Of a stretch of 32,000 bases of DNA, positions 2,815-18,191 are shown one piece after another. How positions within the stretch are numbered: position 1 is the stretch's first letter; each line of letters starts with the position of its first letter. Below the pieces are notes generated by a model that was given only the letters and a program-made list of their open reading frames with translations, did no database searches and was not told the origin of the DNA. The translations under genes were made by a program, and so were the position numbers. This stretch comes from Calothrix sp. NIES-2098 (lineage in GTDB: Bacteria; Cyanobacteriota; Cyanobacteriia; Cyanobacteriales; Nostocaceae): NCBI GenBank assembly GCA_002368175.1, contig AP018172.1:8574327-8606326 (forward strand). The letters run 5' to 3'.

Positions 2815-4047
2815 TTAACTGCTAGTTGATGTAACTGCATAATTTCGCATCTCCCAGCGATTTAGCATTTCACTGTAAACATCTTTCACCACAGTCCGCG
2901 CTGCATAAGGCTGTGCTGCACGCACGCATGAAGTACTTGGGTAATTTTCGGAATGTAGAATTACTTGCTGTAAAGCAGCTGCTAACCTCTCTGGCGATCG
3001 CTGTTCGCAGACAACCCCATTGTCAGCAGTTAGTAATTTTGGCGTTTCACCACATCTAGTCGTAACTACTGGTGTTCCACTGGCAAGGGCTTCCAGAACT
3101 ACTAAAGGTAAACCTTCATAGGCACTGCTCAGGACAAACACGTTAGCGATCCGATGCAATCTCGCTAGTTCCTCTATGGGAATTGCTCCTAGCATCGTGA
3201 CCTGAGTAGACAATCCTAATTGAGCGATTTCTGTACGTACTGCTGTTGCTAACTCGCCATCACCCGCGATCAGGAGGTGAGTGTCTGGTTGATTTAAAGC
3301 TGCGATCGCACGTACTAACAAAATTGGATCTTTTTGCGGATGTAGCCGCCCTGCAAACAAGATAAACTTTGTTTCTTCGCTCAAACCCAATTTGTTTGCT
3401 AGTTCTCGTTTCTGCGCTTTCCGTTGTTCCTGACTTAAGGGATAGAAAATTTCGTTATCAAAGGAATTCTTGATATATGCGACTCGATCTTGGAGGTGAG
3501 GATACTGCTGTCTATACAATTGGGCTGAATCAGTATTACAAGAAAAAATCTGGCTAAACTGATTAACTAGCAAGCTTTCTAAAGCAAAATATGCTGTGGG
3601 AAACCTCCGCCACAAAATCGCATTTTTATCGCCTGCTGCTTGAGTTTGCGTGTGAATATCGTTATGAATAAATAAGGTTTTGTCGGCCTGCCAATTTAAA
3701 GCTGCTAAACTTGGTTCTAGACGATGAAAGTGCATAAAGTCTGAGGTAAAACTCCGTCCCAGCAGTGCTGCCGTATACTTAACTGTAGTTGGTATCAGAG
3801 TTCTGAAGTTATCATTTTCTAAGGTAAATAGCGGGAAAAAACTGATTTCTCTACCAGCTAATTCTGCTGCTTGCCACTTGCCAACTCTTTGAGTGCGATC
3901 GCATCCTGTCCCTACTAATCGCACCTCAAACTCACTAGGAGCGTATTTAATCAATGTATTTATAAGTGTTTGTATGCCACCAATAGTAGAGTGCCAAGGA
4001 TTAAATTGGTAGAAAATAGTTAGAACTGGTTTACGCATTACTTTCAA
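2815..4047 (-). CDS. GT4-family glycosyltransferase
   Basis: 410-aa ORF with the nucleotide-sugar binding region FAGRLHPQKDPILL and the E-x7-E motif EGLPLVVLEALASGTPVVTT. An alternative start is Met4 (nt 4038). Confidence 0.9.
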   Translation of the reverse strand: MKVMRKPVLTIFYQFNPWHSTIGGIQTLINTLIKYAPSEFEVRLVGTGCDRTQRVGKWQAAELAGREISFFPLFTLENDNFRTLIPTTVKYTAALLGRSFTSDFMHFHRLEPSLAALNWQADKTLFIHNDIHTQTQAAGDKNAILWRRFPTAYFALESLLVNQFSQIFSCNTDSAQLYRQQYPHLQDRVAYIKNSFDNEIFYPLSQEQRKAQKRELANKLGLSEETKFILFAGRLHPQKDPILLVRAIAALNQPDTHLLIAGDGELATAVRTEIAQLGLSTQVTMLGAIPIEELARLHRIANVFVLSSAYEGLPLVVLEALASGTPVVTTRCGETPKLLTADNGVVCEQRSPERLAAALQQVILHSENYPSTSCVRAAQPYAARTVVKDVYSEMLNRWEMRNYAVTSTSS

Positions 4048-4529
4048 AATAGCCGTATTTTTGCTAAATATATTTTTTTGATAATTATTTCATAACTCAG
4101 TATTCAGTATTTTCTACAGCATCTCTTGAAAACATAATAGACAAAACTATCTGTAGATAGTGTCCTACACAGATATCAAAATATCCACTTAGTTATCCGA
4201 TTGGATAGTGACTCAGGGAATACAGAATTTAGTAGGGTTGTACCTGATAATATTAACCTAGAATAATTTCTCGACTTCACTTAAAATTTACTTGATTTTA
4301 GGCTTACCTCATCAAAATTTAAATTTTTGATATATATTTTTTTTTATAAAAATGCTGATTTGGCTCTAATTTGCAACAAAAACATTTCCTTGAAGGAAAA
4401 TTTGATAACTCTTGTGGATTGATAGTTTTATTTTTCCAAATTTATTTAGTAATATGAATGAAATCATTGAAATCATATTCAATGAGATTATTTGCTTGAT
4501 GTATAACTACTGGTTTAGGGGTGTATTAG

Positions 4530-6056
4530 ATGATATTAGCTATTAGCTTGTTAAGCTTAAAAGCTAAGTCAAACCAAAGTAACATTCGTTTATTGACTCG
4601 TGTATACCTTAGCTTTGGTCTGTTGGTGTGCTTTTTAGTGTTGCAACAAGGCTGGAACTTTTGGTTACTGTTCCTCAATCAAAACGCAGCTAATTGTATA
4701 ACCAATACTCTACAGGTAGAGCGTGAAACACAACATCTACTTAATGAATTGAGAGATGAGGAAAGAGCTACCCAGCAGCCTTACTATAGCCCGATGAGAA
4801 CCACCTTCTCAAACAACCTCGATAGGCTATCCCATCTTTTGCAAGATATGCCTACTCTCAAGACTCAACAGATTCATAAGATTAAATATCTCTATAATAA
4901 TTGGCACAGCCAAGTAAGGCAAAGGCGTATCCTTGAACCTATTCACAGCCTTACTACCGAGGAACAGGTTTCATTAATATCTATAATTAATAATATTCAA
5001 CTGCTGTCGGAGCAATACGAGCAACTTTTGCAAGAGCGCAGACACGATCTACTGCAACTATACCGTATATACACGGTTGTTAATATCGCCAGTACAATCT
5101 TGATTTTGCTAGTAATCAGCGGGAATATCTATTTTTTATATCAAAGAGTTGAGCTTCCCCTTCGTAATTTGATGAGGATAGGCGAGCTGTGGCAAGCGGG
5201 TCAGCTTGAAGCCCGACTCGGCTATGCTTCTGCTGATGAAATTGGTCGCCTCACTGAAATTCTCAATTCAATGGCTAACAAGGCTAGCCAGCGACAGCAA
5301 AACCTGAAAGCAAAAAACCAAAAACTTGAAGATCTGATTTCTGCTCTCTCCCATGACTTGCGTACCCCTCTCTTGGCTACTCGTAATACTTTGGACTGTA
5401 TGCTGAAAGGCGCTTTTGGATATGTCAGCCATTCCTTCAAGGAGGTGCTTGAAGAGTACCGACAAGCTAACGAAGATCTTCTCCAACTTGTGGAAACTCT
5501 GTTGGACATTTCCCGATATGAAAATACTAATAAGACTCATAATAAATTAATCTGCAATTCCCTAAATTGGGAAAACATATTGGCTAAAGTAATTACTTTA
5601 ATAGAAAGCACCTCTGATAAAAAAATAATCTTTACTTGTAAAATCTCGCCATCGCTGCCAGCTGTTTATGCTAATAGCTCAGAAATCCAACGGGTTTTGC
5701 AAAATCTATTGGATAACGCTGTGCGAGTGAGCCAGCCAAATACAGAAATTGTGCTTGAGGTAGTCACGCTAGGAGATACTCAAATAAAGGTCTCTGTCCA
5801 AGATCGCGGCCCAGGTATTACAGCGATAGAGAAGGAAAAACTCTTCCATCGCTTTATTCAAGGAAGAGGTCGGCGGGGAAAATCTGGGCTTGGTCTTTAC
5901 TTGTGTCGTCAAATTATCCAGAATCACGGAGGCTTGATTGGTGTTGATAGTGTTCTTGGAGAAGGTAGTACATTCTGGTTTACTTTACCAGTGGCTAAAG
6001 AAAAAGCTGAGATCCAGAATAAAGAACAACAGATTTTAGATAAACATGTACTGTGA
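4530..6056 (+). CDS. Membrane sensor histidine kinase (CHASE3-like periplasmic region, HAMP, HisKA, HATPase_c)
   Basis: 508 aa with two TM segments (LSFGLLVCFLVLQQ and IYTVVNIASTILILLVISGNIYFLY). HAMP-like segment: LPLRNLMRIGELWQAGQLEARLGYASADEIGRLTEILNSMA. H-box: ISALSHDLRTPL. N-box: NLLDNAVRVS. G1: DRGPGI. G2: GLGLYLCRQI. Confidence 0.92.
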   Translation: MILAISLLSLKAKSNQSNIRLLTRVYLSFGLLVCFLVLQQGWNFWLLFLNQNAANCITNTLQVERETQHLLNELRDEERATQQPYYSPMRTTFSNNLDRLSHLLQDMPTLKTQQIHKIKYLYNNWHSQVRQRRILEPIHSLTTEEQVSLISIINNIQLLSEQYEQLLQERRHDLLQLYRIYTVVNIASTILILLVISGNIYFLYQRVELPLRNLMRIGELWQAGQLEARLGYASADEIGRLTEILNSMANKASQRQQNLKAKNQKLEDLISALSHDLRTPLLATRNTLDCMLKGAFGYVSHSFKEVLEEYRQANEDLLQLVETLLDISRYENTNKTHNKLICNSLNWENILAKVITLIESTSDKKIIFTCKISPSLPAVYANSSEIQRVLQNLLDNAVRVSQPNTEIVLEVVTLGDTQIKVSVQDRGPGITAIEKEKLFHRFIQGRGRRGKSGLGLYLCRQIIQNHGGLIGVDSVLGEGSTFWFTLPVAKEKAEIQNKEQQILDKHVL

Positions 6057-6231
6057 TTTAAATATCATATTTCCCTGATATTTAAGGTGAAATTACTTAA
6101 GTTTAGCGAAACTTAAACACACTTCATCTAACCTTGATAGTTATGACTCTAAGCCTGGCAATAGTATTATGAGGGTTGGCAAGCATAAGTGCTTAAATAT
6201 ACAAGTACAAAAAGCAATATCTAGGAAAATT

Positions 6232-6909
6232 ATGGCTGATAGTGTTGAATTTAAAACTATAAAAGTTCTAGTAGTTGATGACCATCCCTTGATCCGCCGA
6301 GGCATGAAAGGGCAATTTTCCCTAGAAACAGGCTTTACTGTGGTTGGCGAAGCAGAGGATGGTGCCCAAGCTATTAAATTAGCAGCACAACTTCAGCCAG
6401 ATGTAATTTTAATGGATATCGATCTTCCCGATATAGATGGGATAACAGCTACGCAGAAGATCAAAAGTGACCAGACTGCTATTCGGATTCTTGCCTTGAG
6501 TGCATTTGATGACGATACCCAAGTGGTAGGGATGCTTGCAGCTGGAGCCGATGGCTATTGCCTAAAAAGCATTAAATGGGAACAACTGGTTGCTGTTATC
6601 CAATTAGTGCTCCAAGGTGGTGCTTATCTAGATCCTTCAATAGCGCAAAAGGTTGCAAGGATGCTCAAGCCAAGTTTTGTTTCTCAAGATACCCGCGCAT
6701 CTGAAGGGAATCAGCGACCGATTCTTAGTAGTCGCGAGCGCGAAGTTTTGAAATTAATTGCTCAAGGATACTCAAACCAAGAAATAGCTGATGAACTCTA
6801 CCTCTCATTAGGAACTGTCAAATCTTATGTACGTATGCTCTTGAATAAACTCAGCGTTGACGATCGCGTCCAAGCAGCAGCCATAGCTGTACGTGAGGGG
6901 TTAATTTAA
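6232..6909 (+). CDS. NarL/LuxR-family response regulator (canonical receiver + HTH)
   Basis: The ORF track starts at 6169. The ATG at 6232 (MADSVEFKTIKVLVVDDHP), preceded by AGGAAA, is the more likely start. The receiver has the DD pair, the phospho-acceptor context VILMDIDLPDIDG, LALSAF, and GADGYCLKS. The C-terminal LuxR HTH is LSSREREVLKLIAQGYSNQEIADELYLSLGTVKSYV. It sits directly downstream of the kinase. Confidence 0.92.
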   Translation: MADSVEFKTIKVLVVDDHPLIRRGMKGQFSLETGFTVVGEAEDGAQAIKLAAQLQPDVILMDIDLPDIDGITATQKIKSDQTAIRILALSAFDDDTQVVGMLAAGADGYCLKSIKWEQLVAVIQLVLQGGAYLDPSIAQKVARMLKPSFVSQDTRASEGNQRPILSSREREVLKLIAQGYSNQEIADELYLSLGTVKSYVRMLLNKLSVDDRVQAAAIAVREGLI

Positions 6910-8746: not shown

Positions 8747-10291
8747 TTACTTGCGGGTATAACGATGCTTCACCCCAATAGGGAAATATTCTGCGTCACC
8801 AGTGGGAGCTAATGCAACTTGTGGCATTTGATATTCTTTTGGAACGTAGTTAGCAAATTCGCTATTAAGACGTAAAAGTTGCGAGAGAATGGAAGATGCG
8901 ATCGCAACTCTTTTGTCTTCGCTAGCTTCTACTCCTGGTGCTAACTCTACGACTATAGATAAAAATCGGTTTTTGTCTGCGTCTTCTTTAACTTGCAAGA
9001 CAAATTTACCTGTTACCCAGTCGGGAATTGGCGATCGCTCTAAACCTACTGTGACATTTTCTGGATAGATATTTGCACCAAAGTAAGAAACTGTAAAATT
9101 AGAACGTCCGAAGACATATACAAAAGGTAGGGCGCGAATACCTCTAGTGGCTTGATTGTCAACGCAGAGATGTTCATCTTGAAGCGGATCGAATCCCCAT
9201 TGTGCCAAAAATTTCAGCATGGCATCGTAATTAATTACCCCACCTGTATCTAAGATGTTATAACGCACCAGAGGAATACCATTGTTTCCCGAAAACAGCA
9301 ATGTGCCATCCTGCACTTCAAAAAAGCGACTGATAGGGTCGTATTGTACTAATGTTGGCAGTCGAGATTCGCCAAATAAAGCTTTCGCTGCATCGGGATG
9401 TTGTGCCAAAAAACGACGAATGCAGATACTCAAAGGTGTTTCATTACCTAACACACCTGCATCAGCAGTTCCATAAAGTGATGCAAAGTCATAGCAGGGA
9501 TTTTGCGAACCGATTCTTTCACCTACCAAACTCCGCCATTCTTCACTAAAGACTTCTCCTGCCATCACCAACTTAATATGATATTGCTGCCACTGCACGT
9601 TTCGAGCAATTCCGGTATCAATTACATCTTTCAGGAATGGGGGATAACCCAACAAAACAACTTGGTCAAATCCTAAAGCAAGTTCCTGAACGGCACGCAA
9701 GATTTCTTCTTTATTATTCCCTGGTGTAATTACAGTTACAGGATAACCTTTGCTGGCAAGATAGCGACAGCAATTAGTGGTAAACATTCCACCTACCCAT
9801 GTACCCAAAGTGAAGCAAATCACCGCTAAGGTGCGTCTGGTATCTGCATAGAAACTATCGTGAAAAATTTGCTCAAAGCGGGTGGCGATTTGCAGTTCAT
9901 CTGCGAAGAAACGCGGCCAGAATGTGGGTTTACCTGTGGAACCGGAGGAAGCCGCTATCATGTCGCATTCTGATAACTTCCCATTGCGGCACAAGTCAGC
10001 TAGAGGATAACGCGAGATATAATTTTCTTTGGCGATCGCGGGTAAGTTTTGAAAATCTTCTAAACTTTGGATAGTCGCTGGATCGATTCCCCGTTCTGCC
10101 AGAAAAGCTTTGTAAGCTGGAACATGAGCAGCCACATCACGAAATAAAGCCAAAATCGCTGATTCCTTTGGTGTTTCTAGATGCTGTTGTAGTAGGGTAT
10201 CTAGGGGTGTAGATAAAAAATCACCAAACGCTGTAATTGCTCTTTGCTGTTGTGATGTGCTGTTCATGATGCTTTTTCTAGAGTGCGACAA
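8747..10291 (-). CDS. CapK/PaaK-like adenylate-forming enzyme (phenylacetate-CoA ligase family)
   Basis: 514 aa. The AMP-binding P-loop-like motif is AASSGSTGKPTFWPR. The overall layout fits the COG1541 family, which is frequent in capsule and EPS loci. It converges on the sugar transferase gene. Confidence 0.8.
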   Translation of the reverse strand: MSHSRKSIMNSTSQQQRAITAFGDFLSTPLDTLLQQHLETPKESAILALFRDVAAHVPAYKAFLAERGIDPATIQSLEDFQNLPAIAKENYISRYPLADLCRNGKLSECDMIAASSGSTGKPTFWPRFFADELQIATRFEQIFHDSFYADTRRTLAVICFTLGTWVGGMFTTNCCRYLASKGYPVTVITPGNNKEEILRAVQELALGFDQVVLLGYPPFLKDVIDTGIARNVQWQQYHIKLVMAGEVFSEEWRSLVGERIGSQNPCYDFASLYGTADAGVLGNETPLSICIRRFLAQHPDAAKALFGESRLPTLVQYDPISRFFEVQDGTLLFSGNNGIPLVRYNILDTGGVINYDAMLKFLAQWGFDPLQDEHLCVDNQATRGIRALPFVYVFGRSNFTVSYFGANIYPENVTVGLERSPIPDWVTGKFVLQVKEDADKNRFLSIVVELAPGVEASEDKRVAIASSILSQLLRLNSEFANYVPKEYQMPQVALAPTGDAEYFPIGVKHRYTRK

Positions 10292-10379
10292 AATGCGATC
10301 GCGTAGTCACTATAGCGAAAAATTATCCTCCCTACTCAAATTGTTAAAAGTATTTAGGATGATAAGGATAAATGGAAAA

Positions 10380-10778
10380 ATGACCCGTACTTTTAATCCT
10401 GAATCTTACGGTAAATTGCTAGCTGAGTATCAACCAAAAACGATTATCACAGAAGAAGAAAACGAAGCAGCAATCAGACTGGCTTTAACCTTAGAACATC
10501 GTCCCAATCGGACACCAGAAGAAGATATGTTGTTGGAACTGCTACTAACGCTAATCGAAAAGTTTGAAGAAACCCATTACCCAATTCCTCAAGGTGCGCC
10601 AAATTCGATGTTAATTCATCTGATGGACGCAAAAGATGTGACGACAGAAGCATTAGCTAATGTAATTGGATCGTTGGAAGTTGTGCGGGAAATTATTAAT
10701 GGCGATCGCACTATTAGTAAGACTCAAGCAGAAGCGCTTGCAAACCATTTTAATGTAGATGCTAGTTTATTTATCTAG
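10380..10778 (+). CDS. HigA-like antitoxin / XRE-type HTH protein (solo)
   Basis: The track ORF starts at 10257, which would overlap the divergent CapK-like gene. The internal ATG at 10380 (MTRTFNPESYGKLLAEYQPKTIITEEENEAAI) gives a 132-aa protein. It has the layout of COG5499-type antitoxins, with the C-terminal HTH LMDAKDVTTEALANVIGSLEVVREIINGDRTISKTQAEALANHFNV. No toxin ORF is adjacent. Confidence 0.7.
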   Translation: MTRTFNPESYGKLLAEYQPKTIITEEENEAAIRLALTLEHRPNRTPEEDMLLELLLTLIEKFEETHYPIPQGAPNSMLIHLMDAKDVTTEALANVIGSLEVVREIINGDRTISKTQAEALANHFNVDASLFI

Positions 10779-10933
10779 CTGATTTAAAAAATGACAAAAA
10801 AATCCAATTAAATAATAGGCGATCGCACCCGCCTTACAAGTTAAATCTTAATAAATTTGGATTATTTCTTTCCAAATGAGTTGAGCTAAATTACAATTGC
10901 TACCAGTATAATCTCGGATTTCGTGCTGAAAAT

Positions 10934-11308
10934 ATGGAGCCTGTAACACTGACAGCAGCTGCTATTGCTACTTTAGTCATTACAAAAGCTTTTGAAAAGA
11001 CTGGTGAAATCCTGGGCGAGAAGGCTTTAGAGGAAGGTGGTAAGTTATTCTCTTTGCTCAAGGATAAAGCACCCAATACGGCGGCCGCTATTGAACTGGC
11101 TCAAACACAACCTTTAGATTACGGTCAAGCTTACCTGATTGGGCAGCAAGTAGAGGAAGCAGCAAAGAAAGATGATGAAATAGCTGAAGCTGTCGCAGCA
11201 TTAGCCAAGGAAGCACAACCGCAATTAACCCAAACTATTGAAAATTATCAAGGGATAAATATTAAAGGCGGAACTAATACTATTTCTGGCAATACCTTTA
11301 ACTTTTGA
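10934..11308 (+). CDS. Small helical protein with hydrophobic N-terminal helix and G/N-rich C-terminal motif; candidate N-terminal effector module of the downstream NB-ARC protein
   Basis: 124-aa ORF: MEPVTLTAAAIATLVITKAFEKTGE, then Ala/Glu-rich helices, ending GINIKGGTNTISGNTFNF. Its TGA stop (11306-11308) is in the same reading frame as the following NB-ARC ORF, and there are no other stops between them. Confidence 0.6.
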   Translation: MEPVTLTAAAIATLVITKAFEKTGEILGEKALEEGGKLFSLLKDKAPNTAAAIELAQTQPLDYGQAYLIGQQVEEAAKKDDEIAEAVAALAKEAQPQLTQTIENYQGINIKGGTNTISGNTFNF

Positions 11309-11368
11309 CTACCGTCGCCTGAACGGGAACAGGTAAAGTCTCATCCCCAGAGTGAAATACCGCAAAAT

Positions 11369-13690
11369 TTGCCCCTGAGTGGGGTAGTGGAATTTGTGGG
11401 ACGTGGGGAAGAATTGCAGAACCTCCACAAACTTTTGCAGCAAAATCAACAAGTAGCCATTGCAGCTATTGCAGGGATGGGTGGTGTTGGGAAAACAGAA
11501 CTGGCGTTGCAATATGCCATTAAGTACCGCGACAATTATCAAGGTGGAATTTGCTGGTTGTTGCCCAAATCTGGGGATATTGGCGTGCAAATTGTCCAGT
11601 TTGCGAGGACGCAGCTTGATTTAAACCCGCCAACAGATGTAGATTTACCCGCGCAAGTGCAATTTTGCTGGTGGCGTTGGCGTGAGGGTGAAGTGCTGCT
11701 GGTGTTGGATGATGTTGCTGATTACCAGGAAGTTAAACCTTACTTTGTGTCGCTATCTTCTCGGTTCAAAATCCTGATTACCACCCGCCAGCACTGGGGA
11801 AGGATAGCAGAATTATCCTTAGATGTTCTGCAACCAGAGGCGGCGCTGGAATTATTAAAGTCAATTATTGGGGTAGACAGGTTTGAAAGGGAAAATCAAC
11901 GCAACCCCCAGGTAGCATTACAGTTATGTGAGTGGCTGGGATATTTGCCTTTGGGTTTGGAGTTGGTGGGGCGGTATTTAGAGCAAGACCCAGATTTAAC
12001 ATTAGAGAGAATGCTATCTCGATTACAGCATGATGGCTTGCGAGATAAATCCATATATGCTGCTGAAGCAACAATGACAGCAAAGCTTGGTGTTGAAGCT
12101 GCTTTTAATTTAAGTTGGCAACAATTAGATGCAGCAACTCAAGAATTAGGTTGTTTGCTGAGTTTATTTGCTACAGCACCTATCACTTGGGAACTGGTGG
12201 GAAAGGTTCTGGAAGCATATCGCGCTTTAACTCGCAACTCTAATAGTGTTTTTAAAGGGTTCCAAAAACTTTTTACTTTCTTTAGCAAACAAAATCATCA
12301 GCAGTCTGACAAATCATTTCACCTCAATACAGATATTTCCCTTGAGGAAGCCAAAATTAATTTGCTGCGTTGGCATTTACTCCAGCGCCAAGGTGAAGGA
12401 ATTTACCAACTACATCCCTTGCTGCGGGAGTTTTTCCAAAGTCAGCTTAAAAGCTTAGAACCAGCAGAGGAATTTAAGCGTTCTTTCTGCAAGGTAATGA
12501 TAGCAGTTGCCAAAACAATTCCTCAAACCCCTACCCTTGAACAAATTAACTATGTTACCCCCGCCATACCTCATATAACTGAAGTAGCAGACAATCTTAT
12601 CAAAGATGTTAACGATGATGATTTAATTTGGCCTTTCATCGGCAATGCCCGATTTTATAATGGTCAAGGATTATATGATAAAGCAGCACCTTGGTATCAG
12701 CAAAGTCTAGAAGTTACCAAAAACCGCTTAGGGGAATCACATCCACTTGTTGCTACTAGCCTCAACAATCTGGCGGAACTCTACCGTTCCCAAGGTAGAT
12801 ACAGCGAAGCCGAACCTTTGTATGTGCAAGCTTTAGAATTATGGCGACGAAGCTTGGGGGAATCACATCCACTTGTTGCTACTAGCTTGAACAATCTGGC
12901 AATACTCTACCTTTCCCAAGGTAGATACAGCGAAGCTGAACCTTTGTATGTGCAAGCTTTAGAACTCAGGCGACGAAGCTTGGGGGAATCACATCCACTT
13001 GTTGCTACTAGCCTGAACAATCTGGCGGAACTCTACCGTTCCCAAGGTAGATACAGCGAAGCCGAATCTTTGTATGTGCAAGCTTTAGAACTCAGGCAAC
13101 GAAGCTTGGGAAAATCACATCCACTTGTTGCTACTAGCCTGAACAATCTCGCGGAACTCCACCATTCCCAAGGTAGATACAGCGAAGCCGAACTTTTGTC
13201 TGTGCAAGCTTTAGAGCTATTGCAACGAAGCTTGGGGGAATCACATCCACTTGTTGCTACTAGCCTGAACAATCTGGCGGCACTCTACCGTTCCCAAGGT
13301 AGATACAGCGAAGCCGAACCTTTGTATGTGCAAGCTTTAGAACTCAGGCGACGCATACTGGGGGAATCACATCCAGATTTTGCTACTAGCCTGAACAATC
13401 TCGCCGGACTCTACAAATCCCAAGGCAGATACAGCGAAGCTGAACCTTTGTATGTGCAAGCTTTAGAACTCAGGCGACGCATACTGGGGGAATCACATCC
13501 AGATTTTGCTACTAGCCTGAACAATCTCGCCGGACTCTACGATTCCCAAGGCAGATACAGCGAAGCTGAACCTTTGTATGTGCAAGCTTTGAATATTTTT
13601 GAGCGACAATTAGGGGTGAATCATCGCCATAGTGTTACTGTACGTGGAAATTTAGCATATTTTCGCGCTCAGTTCTCTTCAGAACAGTAA
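11369..13690 (+). CDS. STAND NTPase: NB-ARC domain + winged-helix/helical region + about 9 TPR (kinesin-light-chain type) repeats; NLR-like
   Basis: P-loop: IAGMGGVGKTELA. Walker B: VLLVLDDVADY. RNBS-B-like: FKILITTRQ. GLPL: GYLPLGLELVG. MHD-like: YQLHPLLREFF. After these come repeated 42-aa TPR units (GESHPLVATSLNNLAELYRSQGRYSEAEPLYVQALELRRRSL). The track start is a TTG. The frame is open upstream to the TGA at 11306, and there is no ATG before the P-loop. Confidence 0.88.
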   Translation: MPLSGVVEFVGRGEELQNLHKLLQQNQQVAIAAIAGMGGVGKTELALQYAIKYRDNYQGGICWLLPKSGDIGVQIVQFARTQLDLNPPTDVDLPAQVQFCWWRWREGEVLLVLDDVADYQEVKPYFVSLSSRFKILITTRQHWGRIAELSLDVLQPEAALELLKSIIGVDRFERENQRNPQVALQLCEWLGYLPLGLELVGRYLEQDPDLTLERMLSRLQHDGLRDKSIYAAEATMTAKLGVEAAFNLSWQQLDAATQELGCLLSLFATAPITWELVGKVLEAYRALTRNSNSVFKGFQKLFTFFSKQNHQQSDKSFHLNTDISLEEAKINLLRWHLLQRQGEGIYQLHPLLREFFQSQLKSLEPAEEFKRSFCKVMIAVAKTIPQTPTLEQINYVTPAIPHITEVADNLIKDVNDDDLIWPFIGNARFYNGQGLYDKAAPWYQQSLEVTKNRLGESHPLVATSLNNLAELYRSQGRYSEAEPLYVQALELWRRSLGESHPLVATSLNNLAILYLSQGRYSEAEPLYVQALELRRRSLGESHPLVATSLNNLAELYRSQGRYSEAESLYVQALELRQRSLGKSHPLVATSLNNLAELHHSQGRYSEAELLSVQALELLQRSLGESHPLVATSLNNLAALYRSQGRYSEAEPLYVQALELRRRILGESHPDFATSLNNLAGLYKSQGRYSEAEPLYVQALELRRRILGESHPDFATSLNNLAGLYDSQGRYSEAEPLYVQALNIFERQLGVNHRHSVTVRGNLAYFRAQFSSEQ
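12731..13612 (+). repeat. Seven tandem near-identical 126-bp coding repeats (TPR units)
   Basis: GGGGAATCACATCC recurs at 12731, 12857, 12983 (the 13109 unit reads GGGAAAATCACATCC), 13235, 13361 and 13487. A degenerate unit starts at 13613. The last two units share an identical stretch of roughly 90 nt (about 13321-13414 versus 13447-13540). Confidence 0.95.
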
Positions 13691-14225: not shown

Positions 14226-15905
14226 ATGCAAGTCTATTGCACAAAACAACACGTAAATAATGGCAGTAACCGTTTTTGTACGCACTGCGGTGAACCCTTG
14301 CCTCTTCCTGTAGGGCAGCTGGTGGATAAACGCTACAAAATTATACGTCAATTAGGTGAAGGTGGTTTTGGGCGTACTTATTTGGCTGAGGATCGAAATC
14401 AATCTAACCAACAATGCGTACTTAAAGAATTTGCACCGCAAGTACAAGAACAGCAAGATTTACAAAAAGCTAAAGAGTTATTTGAGCGTGAAGCAAATGT
14501 CCTCAAAAAACTCCAGCATCCGCAAATCCCTAAGTTTCACGCCTCGCTACAAGAGAAGTTAGGGGGTAGAGATTTTTTCTTTTTAGTACAAGATTATATA
14601 GATGGTGATAATTATCGCCAGTTGTTAGAACAGCGTCAAAGTCAAGGACAGACTTTTAGTGAAGAAGAAGTACTGACATTATTAGAAAAAATCTTACCTG
14701 TGCTGTCCTATTTGCATTCCAAAGATGTAGTTCATCGCGATATTTCACCAGAGAATTTAATCTGGCGGCGTTCTGATAATTTACCAATATTAATTGACTT
14801 TGGTGGAGTGAAACAATTACCAGCTTCTCAAGGTTTTTGGTTTACCCAGTTGGCGGTAAATCATACTTTATTAGGGAAAAAAGGCTATGCTCCAGAAGAA
14901 CAACTAAGACAAGGCAAAGTTTTTTTTAGTAGCGATTTATATTCTTTAGCAGTGACAGCTTTGGTGCTGCTGACTGGAAAGGAACCACAAATGCTTTATG
15001 ACAGCTACCAAGGAATTTGGCTTTGGGGAAAAGAAATCAAAGTCAGTCCCAAGCTAGAAGCAGTGTTAAAAAAGATGTTGGCGTATCAACCTAACGCTCG
15101 CTATCAAAATGCTAGTCAAGTATTGAAAGATTTACCTTCAAAAGTTGCTACTAAACAACCAAATCCTTACATTACCAAAATTAAGACGATGGTGGTTGCT
15201 CCAGGGCGCAAACAGACTAATCAAATTATTAGTAAAATCCATAGCAAAACGCAACTAATAGCTAATAAAATGCCTCTTCCTGCTTGGCTGCGTCCTTTTG
15301 CTGTGAGTCTGGGAGGAACGGCTGTAGTAGTTTTAGTTGGTGTAGGCAGCTTTGCGGTAGTAAATGGCATTATTCGCAGTATATCGTCAATTTCTCTCCC
15401 AAAAATCCCATCAATATCGCTTCCTGCAAGTAAACCAGTTAGCGATAAAGGAACGAGTCGCATTAGTCAAATTTTAAGCCGCCGCCAACAACTGGAAATT
15501 CCCGAAGGATTTTTCATCCGCATGGTAGATAATTTGTTCTATTCACAAAAGCCAGAATTACAAGGACGCAGCCTGACCTCTAAACCAGAAGATGCCGCAT
15601 TACGAGATGAATGGTATGGTATTGCCGAAAACTTGTTGCAAAAACTGGAACAAGCTAATCTCAGTTCAGCGGCTCGTCGTAAACTAGGAAGCTACAGTCA
15701 GAGAGATTACGATACTTGGAGGCAACAAGCACGCAATGGACAGTTTGGTAACTATACAATAAATCAATTAACAAAAGATACATACGAACAATTCGATCGC
15801 TTGTTTCCCGGTCAGCCGCGTGGGAAACTGAATCAACAAACTTACGGTCAGATTTGGTATGCGATCGCAGCCGATCGAGTAAGTAAGGTACAATCTGGCA
15901 ACTAA
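14226..15905 (+). CDS. Membrane Ser/Thr protein kinase with N-terminal CHCC zinc ribbon and extracytoplasmic C-terminal domain
   Basis: Zinc ribbon: YCTKQHVNNGSNRFCTHCGEPL. Gly loop: LGEGGFGRTY. VAIK-type Lys: CVLKEF. Catalytic loop: HRDISPENL. DFG: LIDFGGV. APE-like: GYAPEEQ. TM helix: FAVSLGGTAVVVLVGVGSFAVV. The roughly 150-aa C-terminal domain is shared with the next gene. Confidence 0.9.
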   Translation: MQVYCTKQHVNNGSNRFCTHCGEPLPLPVGQLVDKRYKIIRQLGEGGFGRTYLAEDRNQSNQQCVLKEFAPQVQEQQDLQKAKELFEREANVLKKLQHPQIPKFHASLQEKLGGRDFFFLVQDYIDGDNYRQLLEQRQSQGQTFSEEEVLTLLEKILPVLSYLHSKDVVHRDISPENLIWRRSDNLPILIDFGGVKQLPASQGFWFTQLAVNHTLLGKKGYAPEEQLRQGKVFFSSDLYSLAVTALVLLTGKEPQMLYDSYQGIWLWGKEIKVSPKLEAVLKKMLAYQPNARYQNASQVLKDLPSKVATKQPNPYITKIKTMVVAPGRKQTNQIISKIHSKTQLIANKMPLPAWLRPFAVSLGGTAVVVLVGVGSFAVVNGIIRSISSISLPKIPSISLPASKPVSDKGTSRISQILSRRQQLEIPEGFFIRMVDNLFYSQKPELQGRSLTSKPEDAALRDEWYGIAENLLQKLEQANLSSAARRKLGSYSQRDYDTWRQQARNGQFGNYTINQLTKDTYEQFDRLFPGQPRGKLNQQTYGQIWYAIAADRVSKVQSGN

Positions 15906-16037: not shown

Positions 16038-18191
16038 ATGCATCCTGTCTATTGCTCCAAAGGACACGAAAATCCCGCAGGGAGCCGCTTTTGCCTGAAT
16101 TGCGGTGAGAAGTTATTAGATACGCCTGTAAATTACAGTATCCAACCGGGACAAGTTTTAGGCGATCGCTATTTAATTGTGCGTCAAATTGGGCAAGGTG
16201 GTTTTGGACGTACTTATTTAGCTGAAGATGTTAACCGTTTTCGCGAACTTTGTGTTTTAAAAGAATTTTCTCCTCAAGTTCAAACGGCTTACGTTTTACA
16301 AAAAGCGGAAGAACTGTTTCAGCGAGAAGCCAGCGTTCTCTACAAGCTGCAACATCCCCAAATTCCGCGCTTTCGGGAAAATTTCCGCATCAATTTGGAT
16401 GGTAAAGAATACCTGTTTTTGGTGCAAGATTATGTAGAAGGGCAAACTTACAACTCTTTACTAAATACTCGCCGATCGCAAGGTTTGCGGTTTACAGAGG
16501 CGGAAATTAGACAGTTGTTGCAGCAAATCCTCCCAGTTTTGGAATACATACACTCTCTAGGCGTAATTCACCGCGATATTTCTCCCGATAATTTGATTCT
16601 GCGTAAGCTCGATCAATTACCAGTATTAATTGATTTTGGCGGCGTGAAACAAGTAGTAGCAACGGTCGCCTCTGAATATTACCAGCCTGGTGTTGTTGGA
16701 TCTCCCGCAGGAGCAACTTTACTGGGTAAGGTGGGATTTGCACCCCCAGAACAAATGCAAACTGGTTTGGTGTCTCCCCACAGCGATTTATATGCTTTGG
16801 CAGCTACTATGTTGGTTTTACTGACAGGAAAGCAACCACAAGAATTAATTGATACTTATACCCTAAATTGGCAATGGGACAGAGAAGTTAGCCTGAGTCC
16901 AGCTTTGGGGCAAATTTTAAATAAAATGCTATCTCCTAGACCAGGCGATCGCTATCAATCGGCTCGTCAAGTCTTAGAAGCACTCAACCCCCAGCAGGCG
17001 ATAAGCTATGTACCCACACAACCGCCTACCCAAGCACCTACACCTCCCACCACATCTGAGACTGTTGCGATCGCTTCTCCGCGTTACCCATCTCCCCCAG
17101 TTCCGATCTCGTCACCTCCACCTCAACCGACAAATTCTTGGACACCAACCAAAACCTTTCTCATTGTATTAGTAACAGCTGGGATTGCGGGAGTGGGTTT
17201 GTGGGGAGTAAATAATTTGCTGCGATCGGATTTGAATGGAGGCGATCCTACAATTTCACCTACACCCACACCTACAGCCACTACTACTCCGCCGCAGTAT
17301 TCCCCAGCAGAACAGCAACGCAAAGATAAATTGCGCGATCGCCGTCAACAGTTGGGTATAGACAATAATTTCTACGTTAACTTGGTAAATCAACTGTTTT
17401 GGGAACAAAATCCCAGTTTAAAAGGACGAACTCTGAGCGATCGCCCTGAAGATGAAAATTTGCGGGCACAATGGGATCGACTAGCAGGCGAAGTATTAGA
17501 CAAACTTGCACAACTGAGTACCAAAGCACGCCAGCAACTCGGAACTTACACATCAGCAGAACGCGATCGCTGGAAAGTGGAAGTTAACCAAGTCAACGTT
17601 GGTAGTCGTTCGTTATACGATTTAGGAGATGCTGCTTTCTTTGCTGCTTTCCCCACCCAGCGCAACAAAGATTTTGTCAATCAACCCATTGGACAAGTTT
17701 GGTATGGCTTTGTCAGTGACAAGCTGAGTGCGATTTTAGCTGGTAGCGCTTTTCAAAAAATTGTCTTTGATCAAGGTGCTACCAGTAAAACAGTTAGTGG
17801 TAATCTTAGCCCCAGTAATGGCAAAGTTTTTATTGCTGGACTTGCCAAAGAGCAATCTTTAGAAGTGAATCTCAAAGCCAATTCTAAAGTTTTGCTATCA
17901 ATATATTCACCCTCTGGCAAAATCAAATTTTTAGAAGATTCTACCCAGCGCAGTTTGTCAATCAAGCTACCTGAAGATGGATTTTATGAATTTGTGGTTG
18001 TAAATACAGGATCGCAAGCAACAGATTATCAACTAACCATCACAGCCCAAACTCCCACCCCACCAACACCGACACCAACTGTTACCGACACTCCTACACC
18101 CACACCCACCGTCACAACAACACCAACACCGACACCAACTGTCACCGACACTCCTACACCTACACCCACCCCAACATCTAATAGTCAATGA
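16038..18191 (+). CDS. Membrane Ser/Thr protein kinase paralog with CHCC zinc ribbon, Pro/Thr-rich linkers, shared extracytoplasmic domain, extra beta-rich domain and TP-repeat tail
   Basis: Zinc ribbon: YCSKGHENPAGSRFCLNCGEKL. Gly loop: IGQGGFGRTY. Lys: CVLKEF. Catalytic loop: HRDISPDNL. DFG: LIDFGGV. TM helix: FLIVLVTAGIAGVGLWGV. The domain RQQLGIDNNFYVNLVNQLFWEQNPSLKGRTLSDRPEDENLRAQW is homologous to the first kinase. The C-terminal TPTPTPTVTDTPTPTPT tail is encoded by two 60-bp direct repeats (18061-18110 and 18121-18170). Confidence 0.9.
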   Translation: MHPVYCSKGHENPAGSRFCLNCGEKLLDTPVNYSIQPGQVLGDRYLIVRQIGQGGFGRTYLAEDVNRFRELCVLKEFSPQVQTAYVLQKAEELFQREASVLYKLQHPQIPRFRENFRINLDGKEYLFLVQDYVEGQTYNSLLNTRRSQGLRFTEAEIRQLLQQILPVLEYIHSLGVIHRDISPDNLILRKLDQLPVLIDFGGVKQVVATVASEYYQPGVVGSPAGATLLGKVGFAPPEQMQTGLVSPHSDLYALAATMLVLLTGKQPQELIDTYTLNWQWDREVSLSPALGQILNKMLSPRPGDRYQSARQVLEALNPQQAISYVPTQPPTQAPTPPTTSETVAIASPRYPSPPVPISSPPPQPTNSWTPTKTFLIVLVTAGIAGVGLWGVNNLLRSDLNGGDPTISPTPTPTATTTPPQYSPAEQQRKDKLRDRRQQLGIDNNFYVNLVNQLFWEQNPSLKGRTLSDRPEDENLRAQWDRLAGEVLDKLAQLSTKARQQLGTYTSAERDRWKVEVNQVNVGSRSLYDLGDAAFFAAFPTQRNKDFVNQPIGQVWYGFVSDKLSAILAGSAFQKIVFDQGATSKTVSGNLSPSNGKVFIAGLAKEQSLEVNLKANSKVLLSIYSPSGKIKFLEDSTQRSLSIKLPEDGFYEFVVVNTGSQATDYQLTITAQTPTPPTPTPTVTDTPTPTPTVTTTPTPTPTVTDTPTPTPTPTSNSQ

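Follow-up and report, generated by a model that had tools for sequence, protein, structure and literature searches.

Comparative evidence for a probable programmed UGA read-through between a Bell/BASS7 effector and an NB-ARC/TPR sensor in Calothrix sp. NIES-2098

The DNA analyzed here, referred to as the window, is a stretch of 32,000 nucleotides (nt) from the filamentous cyanobacterium Calothrix sp. NIES-2098 (assembly GCA_002368175.1, contig AP018172.1, positions 8,574,327 to 8,606,326), and it contains a small open reading frame (ORF) for a Bell-type protein with a C-terminal bacterial amyloid signalling sequence (BASS) of class BASS7, directly followed by an ORF for an NLR-like NB-ARC/TPR protein. 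We consider it probable that this locus (10934-13690) is a Bell/BASS amyloid-signalling NLR immune module laid out as one recoded frame rather than as two genes. Programmed read-through of a single UGA is the likely source of two products, an abundant free Bell-BASS7 protein and a rare Bell-BASS7-NB-ARC-TPR fusion that would nucleate amyloid. This is the most economical reading since the junction carries the hallmarks of read-through, and since the sensor lacks both a start codon and an N-terminal domain of its own. Bell, BASS7 and NB-ARC/TPR are known components; it is the recoded single-frame architecture together with its RNA signal that appears to be new. The parts of the locus described below lie on the forward strand.

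The Bell ORF (10934..11308) has an ATG start and 124 codons and ends in TGA at 11306-11308. The sensor ORF, for which the gene caller lists a TTG start (11369..13690), shares its frame, and the TGA is the sole separator. Translation through the stop gives ...GNTFNF-stop-LPSPEREQVKSHPQSEIPQNLPLSGVVEFVGRGEEL...GMGGVGKT, and the read-through product would be 918 amino acids (aa) long, spanning 10934-13690. The codons translated only upon read-through form a linker (LPSPEREQVKSHPQSEIPQNLPLSGVVE; 11309..11392) that contains no conserved initiation codon. From comparison of related loci, we propose the UGA and the following CUA (positions +4 to +6; 11306..11311) as the read-through site.

For this comparison 80 genome loci were fetched by homology to the small protein which, with the window and six further loci added, gave 84 intact loci, and a metagenome scan with a degenerate DNA junction pattern returned 65 stretches. 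About 32 of these 65 are real junctions, in which a Bell-like ORF lies upstream and a STAND NTPase follows in frame downstream, the BASS-like motifs including many new ones, and the remaining stretches (e.g. from human gut) contained neither ORFs nor pairing. An in-frame extension of 100-1053 codons follows the stop in 68 of the 84 intact loci, and the stop is TGA in every one of them (68/68), in 64 cases as TGA-CTA. An extension of at least 100 aa is missing from all 10 loci that end in TAA or TAG, and loci without an extension mostly end in these two codons. The in-frame loci come from Nostoc, Calothrix, Aulosira, Komarekiella, Amazonocrinis and Dendronalium and, outside the Nostocales, from Aerosakkonema, Potamolinea and Coleofasciculus, and at least 5 different types of C-terminal motif precede the in-frame stop. 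Counted over distinct junctions, the codon after TGA is CTA in 77/82, and the codon before it varies (TTC in 51 junctions, TTT in 13, CCT, ACT and others). The 17 other long ORFs of the window end in TAA (8), TGA (7) or TAG (2), and those TGAs have T or A at +4, never C. UGA is the leakiest stop, C at +4 weakens termination, and UGA-CUA promotes read-through (PMC7026636). When 5.8 billion proteins were searched with the hypothetical read-through product, no protein covered both halves; consequently, the stop is never a sense codon in the sequences found. Damaged members of the family also exist. Premature stops interrupt the Bell gene of L030, L041 and L045, and in Nostoc sp. 'Lobaria pulmonaria' cyanobiont (L001, 5370-5900) the junction is intact and the NB-ARC frame breaks 104 codons past the stop, a decayed copy that shows that modules do get lost.

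The frame is strictly conserved as well. Among distinct junctions with a Walker A motif within 110 codons of the stop, the motif lies in frame 0, with the frame open, in 83/83, and in frame 1 or 2 in none, over stop-to-Walker A spacings of 47, 48, 49, 50, 51, 52, 53, 55, 58, 59 and 64 codons, that is, at least 11 linker lengths. The NB-ARC domain opens with an FVGR motif, and in 23 of 82 junctions no ATG, GTG or TTG is found between the TGA and this motif; in a further 13 of the 82 such a codon is present only within 3 codons of FVGR. The TTG at 11369 in the window is a synonymously variable Leu codon that is not conserved as a start. The junction therefore displays a conserved leaky stop in a weak context, followed by an open, frame-conserved extension without an initiation signal of its own, as expected of read-through. 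Several such NB-ARC partners are labelled 'partial' by NCBI, even on long contigs, and these labels are consistent with annotation pipelines finding no acceptable start codon.

Downstream of the stop we found a conserved RNA structure. It is preceded by an 8-nt spacer (CTACCGTC; consensus CTACAGTC; 11309..11316) in which the alignment columns are nearly invariant, and in the window the putative pseudoknot begins right after this spacer, CUACCGUC. Stem 1 is a hairpin (11317..11334) in which GCCUG 11317-11321 pairs with CAGGU 11330-11334 around the loop AACGGGAA, as supported by covariation and by RNAalifold, which finds it independently at -8.0 kcal/mol. Stem 2 (11325..11347), with weaker support than stem 1, pairs GGGA 11325-11328 of the loop with UCCC 11344-11347 and would complete an H-type pseudoknot with an A-rich loop 3 of 9 nt (11335-11343); the signal from stop to stem 2 measures 42 nt. 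In an ungapped alignment of 46 genome junctions 98.6 % of cells pair and 4/9 pairs are changed on both sides, and pairing holds in 97-99 % of cells vs 18-52 % with slid partner columns. With metagenomic junctions included (78 junctions, the search pattern for the metagenomic set having fixed some stem 1 bases), 45 cells are changed on both sides, compared with 12.1 +/- 2.6 in shuffles, and none of 500 shuffles reached that figure. In this set, column pair 19-34 reads CG 55 / UA 20 / other 2, column pair 21-32 reads CG 42 / UG 17 / UA 12 / GC 6 with no unpaired case, and column pair 18-35 reads GU 47 / GC 30. The stem 2 column pair 26-48 reads GC 56 / GU 10 / AU 3 / CG 2 / other 6, and helix 2 is 94.5 % paired. 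One compensation couples a silent CCC/CCU Pro change to an R/Q change five codons later, and a second couples a P/S change to a V/T change. The fetched loci, about 1.2 Mb in total, contain 77 distinct matches to the structure pattern, and every one of them is preceded by a TGA at a distance of exactly 8 nt.

The pattern of substitutions points in the same direction. A Nei-Gojobori count on 41 distinct loci gave, for the BASS codons -20 to -1, a proportion of synonymous differences (pS) of 0.59 and a ratio of nonsynonymous to synonymous proportions (pN/pS) of 0.57. The corresponding values were 0.11 and 1.33 for codons +1 to +13, 0.20 and 0.66 for codons +14 to +20, and 0.35-0.49 and 0.2-0.4 for codons +21 to +140, from the NB-ARC start onward. 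Synonymous variation after the stop is thus suppressed about fivefold, and third positions show no excess variation in the first 20 codons after the TGA. The low pS together with the pN/pS of 1.33 indicates that the region is conserved as nucleotides and not as protein. A conserved 3' RNA structure at the right distance, combined with suppressed synonymous variation, is a further hallmark of read-through, stem 2 being the less certain part of it.

Two other foldings were tried and rejected. A hairpin including the stop (UGAC-UACA-GUCG) is broken by a frequent C at alignment column 16 for which compensation is impossible, and covariation is lacking in an outer helix CAGU/ACUG that would enclose the pseudoknot. 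A second small hairpin, GCCCCUGAGUGGGGU (11371-11385), begins at the last base of TTG 11369-11371 and overlaps the LPLSGV codons. It is kept in most Nostocales loci with G-U changes and one altered loop (L056), is absent in distant loci, and could be a by-product of the Pro and Gly codons.

The upstream partner of the junction is a genuine protein family. The original prediction, made from the sequence of the window, had described the ORF at 10934..11308 as resembling a HeLo/Bell-type membrane-targeting module and ending in an amyloid-like motif. The ORF is present, its N-terminus being MEPVTLTAAAIATLVITKAF, and so is the motif placed at 11252-11305 (...GINIKGGTNTISGNTFNF, then TGA). A hypothetical protein of Calothrix sp. 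NIES-2098 matches the 124-aa protein at 100 % identity. Homologues number 214, with lengths of 121-163 aa; filamentous cyanobacteria, mostly Nostocales, account for nearly all of them, and none has a Pfam domain. With so many homologues the ORF is not a chance feature. In an alignment of 33 homologues the first ~100 residues are conserved, with a nearly invariant N-terminus MEPxxLTAAAIATLVITKAFEKTGE, and the last 20-45 residues fall into several unrelated types. Related loci diverge to 48-94 % identity.

Bell domains are described as ~100-aa alpha-helical domains that have a hydrophobic helix at the N-terminus and a negatively charged residue at position 2 or 3 (10.1101/2020.01.06.895854, 10.1101/2024.11.07.622273), the constant helical domain being joined to a swappable short C-terminal motif in proteins with bacterial amyloid signalling sequences (10.1101/2020.01.06.895854). 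A 'MEPIS' N-terminal signature is common to Bell, Hell and some antiphage NLRs (10.1101/2024.11.07.622273). On the basis of the homologue alignment, an AlphaFold2 (AF2) model and an N-terminus of the MEPIS type, we assign residues 1-98 (10934..11227) to a Bell-type alpha-helical effector domain. The N-terminal helix is uncharged apart from the segment's Glu at position 2 (MEPVTLTAAAIATLV), and the MEPxT start fits the 'MEPIS' signature. The context is also that of Bell genes, as a collinear gene for an NLR-like STAND NTPase adjoins in the window and in relatives, where the small protein sits directly upstream of NB-ARC, NACHT or nSTAND genes. The AF2 model, built with the homologue alignment, is a moderately confident helical bundle (pLDDT 63.7) with helices at 8-16, 19-23, 29-45, 47-58, 63-79 and 81-97.

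Profile evidence for the HeLo side of the prediction was sought and did not materialize. A Pfam scan of the 124-aa protein (E <= 1) gave no HeLo, HeLo-like or SesA match, and Pfam, NCBIfam and PADLOC scans gave no family, these three libraries containing no Bell model. A PDB sequence search with the family profile found designed coiled coils only (E > 0.1), and Foldseek of the AF2 model against PDB returned nothing under E = 2 (best 2.1). Structure prediction of residues 1-124 thus yielded the helical bundle (8-97) and no relevant fold match. Very low similarity and variable topology are noted in the Bab preprint itself (10.1101/2024.11.07.622273). Kinship with HeLo, MLKL or Bab at the fold level is accordingly unproven, the case for it consisting of the N-terminal signature and the genomic context. 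What stands of the Bell-plus-amyloid assignment is the evidence from family and context, i.e. the NLR neighbors, paired motifs, BASS7/BASS5 motifs and the MEPxT start; what fell is the expected match to a HeLo-type profile in Pfam.

The C-terminal motif can be named with more precision. Residues 98-124 (LTQTIENYQGINIKGGTNTISGNTFNF; 11225..11305) correspond to the BASS7 rows in Table S2 of Dyrka et al., and 19/22 residues are identical between the window motif ENYQGINIKGGTNTISGNTFNF and the BASS7 motif ENWQGINIKGGTNTINNNTFNF of AKG20974.1. In that table, PTIINENWQGINIKGGTNTINNNTFNF (AKG20974.1, Calothrix sp. 336/3) is paired with ENWHGINIKGGKNEIKGNTFIF on the adjacent NLR, and more BASS7 rows and pairs come from Calothrix, including Calothrix elsteri and PCC 6303 (10.1101/2020.01.06.895854). 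Other members of the present family carry KLAEKIG..V.GGT.NI, which is BASS5 in Table S2. Residues 99-124 are disordered in the AF2 monomer model (pLDDT < 50).

Relatives of the window show how such motifs are used in classical pairs. In L070 the effector ends ...ENWKGINIKGGNSTINNPNFNF-TAA and, after 5 nt, the NLR continues with MTTENWNGINIKGGNPVINISQSERAKLNPPKHLPYQGVRNFVGRGEEL...GMGGVGKT; in L085 (Pleurocapsa) ...ENWKGINIKGGTNTVSDNTLNF-TAA is followed 7 nt on by an 863-aa P-loop/TPR protein beginning MVSEDWQGINLKGESKNVIRDNNFNY. These two pairs demonstrate that relatives use BASS7 in the published two-gene manner. In both, the NLR linker S-ER-KLNPP comes after the NLR-side motif, and the L070 linker lacks the ~9 nt that form the 5' arm of stem 1. 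In L004 (Calothrix membranacea) a small protein ends ...NYGKLAESLPNLKTVFQGGTFYGDFNF, and a NACHT protein 440 nt downstream has NFDKLAEEIQEIKAVFQGNTFVNSTLNF in its N-terminal region. The window differs from these loci. The motif was said to sit at the junction with the NB-ARC region without a second copy, and a six-frame fuzzy search of the whole 32-kb window indeed failed to find one. In L070 and L085 the motif is paired; in the window a pair is possible only through read-through of UGA 11306. The suspicion that the layout departs from the described two-gene arrangement was hence well founded, there being one motif copy and an NB-ARC region in frame. The further remark that templating would need a read-through fusion has gained in force, as the comparative data (TGA-CTA, frame and RNA structure) now argue that read-through is programmed.

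The downstream partner has the composition of an NLR-like STAND protein, namely an NB-ARC domain with Walker A followed by a repeat array. Pfam matches on the sensor ORF are NB-ARC (3.9e-13) and TPR_10 (2e-107), with TPR_10/TPR_12 ranging from 1e-101 to 1e-107, and the NCBIfam model FxSxx_TPR scores 293.6 bits, slightly below its cut-off of 300. The Walker A motif or P-loop, GMGGVGKT (11474..11497), lies 55 codons past the stop, in frame with the Bell ORF. At the DNA level the TPR region is a tandem array of 126 nt x 6.9 copies with 91 % identity (12726..13590), presumably the ligand-sensing part. Highly similar repeats have been noted for bacterial and fungal NLRs (10.1101/2020.01.06.895854), and the array is of the repeat kind reported for fast-diversifying NLRs. 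If translation starts at 11369 there is no effector or adaptor N-terminal to the NB-ARC domain; if the UGA is read through, Bell-BASS7 takes that place.

We propose the following mechanism, in which the read-through and how efficient it is, the formation of amyloid by BASS7, the attack on the membrane and the trigger are inferred. Most ribosomes would stop at UGA 11306 and release the 124-aa Bell effector with its C-terminal BASS7 tag. A minority would decode the UGA, probably as Trp via a near-cognate tRNA, promoted by the UGA-C(UA) context, the 8-nt spacer and the hairpin/H-type pseudoknot at 11317-11347, and would continue in frame to produce the 918-aa Bell-BASS7-linker-NB-ARC-TPR protein. 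Such a sensor would carry the effector's own copy of BASS7, so that neither a second motif nor a start codon would be needed, and the ratio of sensor to effector would be fixed by translation. Upon sensing of a trigger by the TPR array, oligomerisation of NB-ARC would gather the BASS7 segments, which would then nucleate the amyloid fold and template the excess of free Bell-BASS7. The N-terminal helix of Bell would thereby be released, leading to membrane damage and to regulated cell death or abortive infection. The last steps follow the published logic of amyloid signalling, in which the NLR-side motif seeds the effector-side motif (10.1101/2020.01.06.895854, 10.1101/2024.11.07.622273).

The junction is not confined to the combination of Bell and NB-ARC. 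It precedes NB-ARC proteins of several subtypes as well as other STAND NTPases. In L076 (Floridaenema; 4001-6810) the Bell protein ends TGA-CTACAGTCG, with an nSTAND1 NTPase (PF20703, 5e-105) following in the same frame; here the hairpin is absent, and only the stop context and the spacer are kept. Partners other than NTPases follow the junction in L039, L042 and L093, in L093 with TGA-CTA and the spacer as the parts retained. L039 (4001-5130) and L042, both from Nostoc metagenome-assembled genomes, have Bell-BASS7-TGA and the hairpin (with one mismatch in L042), followed by an in-frame extension of 252 aa with a hydrophobic segment and a long Pro/Ser-rich tail, no Pfam match and no NTPase. 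The upstream partner can change as well. In L105 (1-1083, metagenome contig) the junction comes after an NmrA-like NAD(P)-binding domain (PF05368, 2e-31) ending ...NNQTNNFNNF, and in L119 (1-1951, metagenome contig) TGA-CTA, spacer and hairpin come after an alpha/beta-hydrolase-like protein with no obvious amyloid motif. We lean, on balance, towards the more general view that a dedicated recoding cassette (UGA-CUA, 8-nt spacer, small H-type pseudoknot) placed between effector and STAND NTPase sensor modules builds NLR-type sensors in filamentous cyanobacteria, one mRNA giving an abundant free effector (Bell-BASS, occasionally NmrA-like or hydrolase) and a rare fusion whose amyloid tag would seed the free pool.

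However, these interpretations should be taken with some caution, since a number of observations weigh against them. The evidence for read-through is comparative and not direct, as proteomics, ribosome profiling or a reporter would be. The sequences are related, and the junction counts are thus not counts of independent events. The stems are short (5 and 4 bp), stem 2 shows few independent compensations, and the structure was derived from the same sequences that support it, so that the slid-partner control is biased in its favor. The linker is without constraint at the protein level (pN/pS ~1.3), and its translation is consequently argued only from maintenance of the frame and the ORF. In the window, TTG 11369 and GTG 11387 are possible starts of a separate NLR. 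Similarity to HeLo, MLKL or any solved structure, in sequence or fold, was absent from the searches, and the fibril and prion tests in 10.1101/2020.01.06.895854 and 10.1101/2024.11.07.622273 cover BASS1, BASS3 and BASS11, none being found for BASS7. A subgroup of 16 loci (L009, L018, L019, L021, L022, L024, L025, L027, L028, L031, L034, L036-L038, L040 and L041; linker LKSPQGESIV...) keeps TGA-CTA and the frame and has no supported structure. In this subgroup the linker is LKSPQGESIVSTEIPQN, the P-loop lies 52 codons past the stop, the 3' arm of stem 1 is missing, and only small, unsupported hairpins could be drawn in the stop regions; read-through there, if it occurs, needs another stimulator or none. 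Finally, the precedents for UGA-CUA and for a spacer with a pseudoknot are eukaryotic or viral. We are aware of no cellular bacterial gene in which a pseudoknot stimulates read-through of the stop.

The main rival is separate initiation of the NLR. According to this explanation the locus comprises two ordinary genes, the NLR being translated from TTG 11369, GTG 11387 or a non-canonical start, perhaps by termination-reinitiation, with the hairpin tuning coupling or mRNA stability and the 'headless' NLR signalling to Bell-BASS7 without templating through a shared motif. Gene callers annotate the locus in this way, the in-frame TTG and GTG before FVGR in the window would allow it, classical Bell/NLR pairs are usually tightly coupled or overlapping (10.1101/2020.01.06.895854), and programmed read-through is rare in bacteria. 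We nevertheless regard two separate genes as unlikely, because the start codon is not conserved, 23/82 junctions having none before NB-ARC, and because independent genes would not hold one frame over at least 11 linker lengths. Nor does separate initiation explain why the stop is exclusively TGA with CTA, when TAA and TAG occur freely in classical loci, and an NLR with neither an N-terminal effector or adaptor nor a BASS has no evident output.

A less probable alternative accepts the read-through and assigns the function to the long product. The module would then be an 'all-in-one' Bell-NLR, comparable to plant CC-NLRs or to bacterial Avs/bNACHT proteins with a MEPIS N-terminus, in which the leaky stop keeps a dangerous full-length protein scarce and the free 124-aa product is a by-product, a buffer or an inhibitor. 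All-in-one Bell architectures have been reported (10.1101/2020.01.06.895854), 10.1101/2024.11.07.622273 cites antiphage NLRs whose N-terminus is Bell-like (MEPIS), and the hydrolase-like effector of L119, which has no obvious amyloid motif at the same junction, hints that this could apply to some loci. What makes the all-in-one explanation improbable for the family is that nearly all junctions, across many sequence types, keep a motif of the BASS type beside the stop, which argues that the motif is used, and that classical relatives use the same motifs in pairs.

Decoding of the UGA as selenocysteine, with the hairpin acting as a bacterial selenocysteine insertion sequence (SECIS) element, appears highly improbable. 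An in-frame UGA with a conserved hairpin a few nt downstream in coding sequence does have the geometry of a bacterial SECIS element. The apical loop of such elements begins with G or U, and the loop AACGGGAA starts with neither. An Rfam search of 10800-11700 (E <= 10) gave two chance matches and no SECIS, and the UGA is placed in a disordered linker rather than in a redox motif, with no homologues found that have Cys or another sense codon at the position. The Sec trait has not been detected in Cyanobacteria (PMC1794560). The chance that the locus is decaying, as a pseudogene left when a nonsense mutation disrupted an earlier Bell-NLR fusion, is similarly close to nil, for although a single in-frame stop in a continuous frame looks like a fresh nonsense mutation and a few related loci are damaged (the four named above), the same TGA position recurs, between intact ORFs on either side, in >90 distinct junctions spread over many genera, the codon beside the TGA varies when the TGA does not, the NB-ARC region is under purifying selection (pN/pS 0.2-0.4), and the divergence of the loci excludes that they are copies made recently from a single element. 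We also rejected a prfB-like +1 frameshift at UUU-UGA, given that the ORF beyond the stop is in frame 0 and that the codon before it is variable.

What amyloid-controlled cell death is in fungi and animals has its bacterial counterpart in the Bell/BASS-NLR pairs, and their logic needs a motif shared by sensor and effector. The >90 junctions show another solution to this need, in which one motif copy would be shared through a recoded stop. If this is true, the junction represents a natural structure-assisted UGA read-through signal in bacterial chromosomal genes. To our knowledge, very few cases of bacterial read-through of any kind have been reported. Programmed read-through at these loci would add an NLR architecture of a third kind, intermediate between 'all-in-one' and 'two-gene' amyloid signalling, account for a group of NB-ARC genes that look 'headless', show how translation can set a sensor-to-effector ratio, and correct the annotation of such loci. 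Our literature searches, including full text, found no description of read-through at Bell/NLR or cyanobacterial NLR loci and no pseudoknot-stimulated stop read-through signal in cellular bacterial genes. The two papers on Bell domains and amyloid signalling (10.1101/2020.01.06.895854 and 10.1101/2024.11.07.622273) make no mention of stop codons, reading frames or read-through.

The surroundings of the locus are unremarkable. A promoter-like site, TTTCCA-17-TACAAT (10869..10897), lies 37 nt upstream of the Bell start; the match to consensus is weak and the assignment tentative, the region containing 5 promoter-like sites against a shuffle expectation of 6.2, with terminator counts likewise at expectation. 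A terminator scan found none between the stop at 11308 and the NB-ARC region, the nearest terminator-like match being at 11601-11614, inside the NLR ORF. A tRNA search of the window found none encoded, and hence no suppressor tRNA. The neighbors encode a sugar transferase, two Ser/Thr kinases, MurJ, a histidine kinase and a protein of the MCP type, all of them chromosomal genes of an ordinary kind, with nothing among them suggestive of a phage or mobile element. The upstream ORF at 10257-10778 (forward strand, 173 aa from GTG) has a C-terminal helix-turn-helix of the HTH_3/XRE type (E = 2e-4, below the Pfam cut-off) and overlaps the 5' end of an ORF on the opposite strand (8747-10291). It may be an antitoxin-like regulator, and the other loci showed no connection between it and the Bell/NLR module. 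The two kinase genes (14226-15905 and 16038-18191, forward strand) stand in tandem and encode Ser/Thr protein kinases that each carry CxxC...CxxC at the N-terminus and a transmembrane segment and that resemble one another in their C-terminal regions; the second (16038-18191) has a long Thr/Pro-rich tail.

Among known read-through systems, one close resemblance is to the gag-pol signal of murine leukaemia virus, which consists of a stop, an 8-nt spacer and a pseudoknot (PMC7026636). The window shares with it a proposed leaky stop, the conserved 8-nt spacer, a compact putative pseudoknot and, if the model holds, a fixed ratio of short to extended product as for Gag and Gag-Pol. It differs in that the gene is bacterial and chromosomal, its stems, of 5 + 4 bp, fall far below the viral ones in length, UGA takes the place of UAG as the stop, and the function of the structure is predicted. 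The UGA-CUA context is the same as at read-through sites of plant viruses and mammalian genes (PMC7026636). That a bacterial ribosome can read through a natural UGA at a few per cent, giving an essential extended protein, is known from the coat/A1 gene of phage Q-beta (cited in PMC7026636). Q-beta differs from the window in being a phage with unrelated biology. We are not aware of any stimulatory pseudoknot at the Q-beta site.

Turning to the proteins, the Bell domain of Bab/Agp in E. coli ECOR25 executes abortive infection via amyloid templating (10.1101/2024.11.07.622273). The proposed module resembles this system in that the C-terminal amyloid motif of a Bell-type effector would be converted by a sensor with the same motif, with membrane damage and abortive infection as the output; unlike Bab/Agp, the window protein has no detected sequence similarity to solved structures. 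In the fungal HET-S/NWD2 and HeLo/HeLL pairs, too, NLR oligomerisation templates the amyloid fold on a pore-forming helical effector encoded next door, whereas the window system is bacterial, has no detectable similarity in Pfam, and would use one shared motif copy via recoding. The architecture of the read-through product, i.e. a membrane-targeting helix bundle, a STAND NTPase and repeats, is that of 'all-in-one' NLRs with a Bell/MEPIS N-terminus such as Avast2 and bNACHT02/11/23 (cited in 10.1101/2024.11.07.622273), which are single uninterrupted ORFs without an amyloid motif or internal stop. Also close are the Bell-BASS/BASS-NLR gene pairs of filamentous bacteria, above all the BASS7 pairs from cyanobacteria (10.1101/2020.01.06.895854). 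Like them, the window has a ~100-aa helical effector with a hydrophobic N-terminus, an acidic residue at position 2 and BASS7, and next to it a collinear NB-ARC/TPR NLR with highly similar repeats in a filamentous cyanobacterium. The window NLR differs in lacking a BASS copy and a conserved start codon, and the two ORFs share one frame, split by UGA-CUA and an RNA hairpin/pseudoknot. The motif that the published pairs carry on both proteins would be present on both products of the window as well, provided that the stop is read through.

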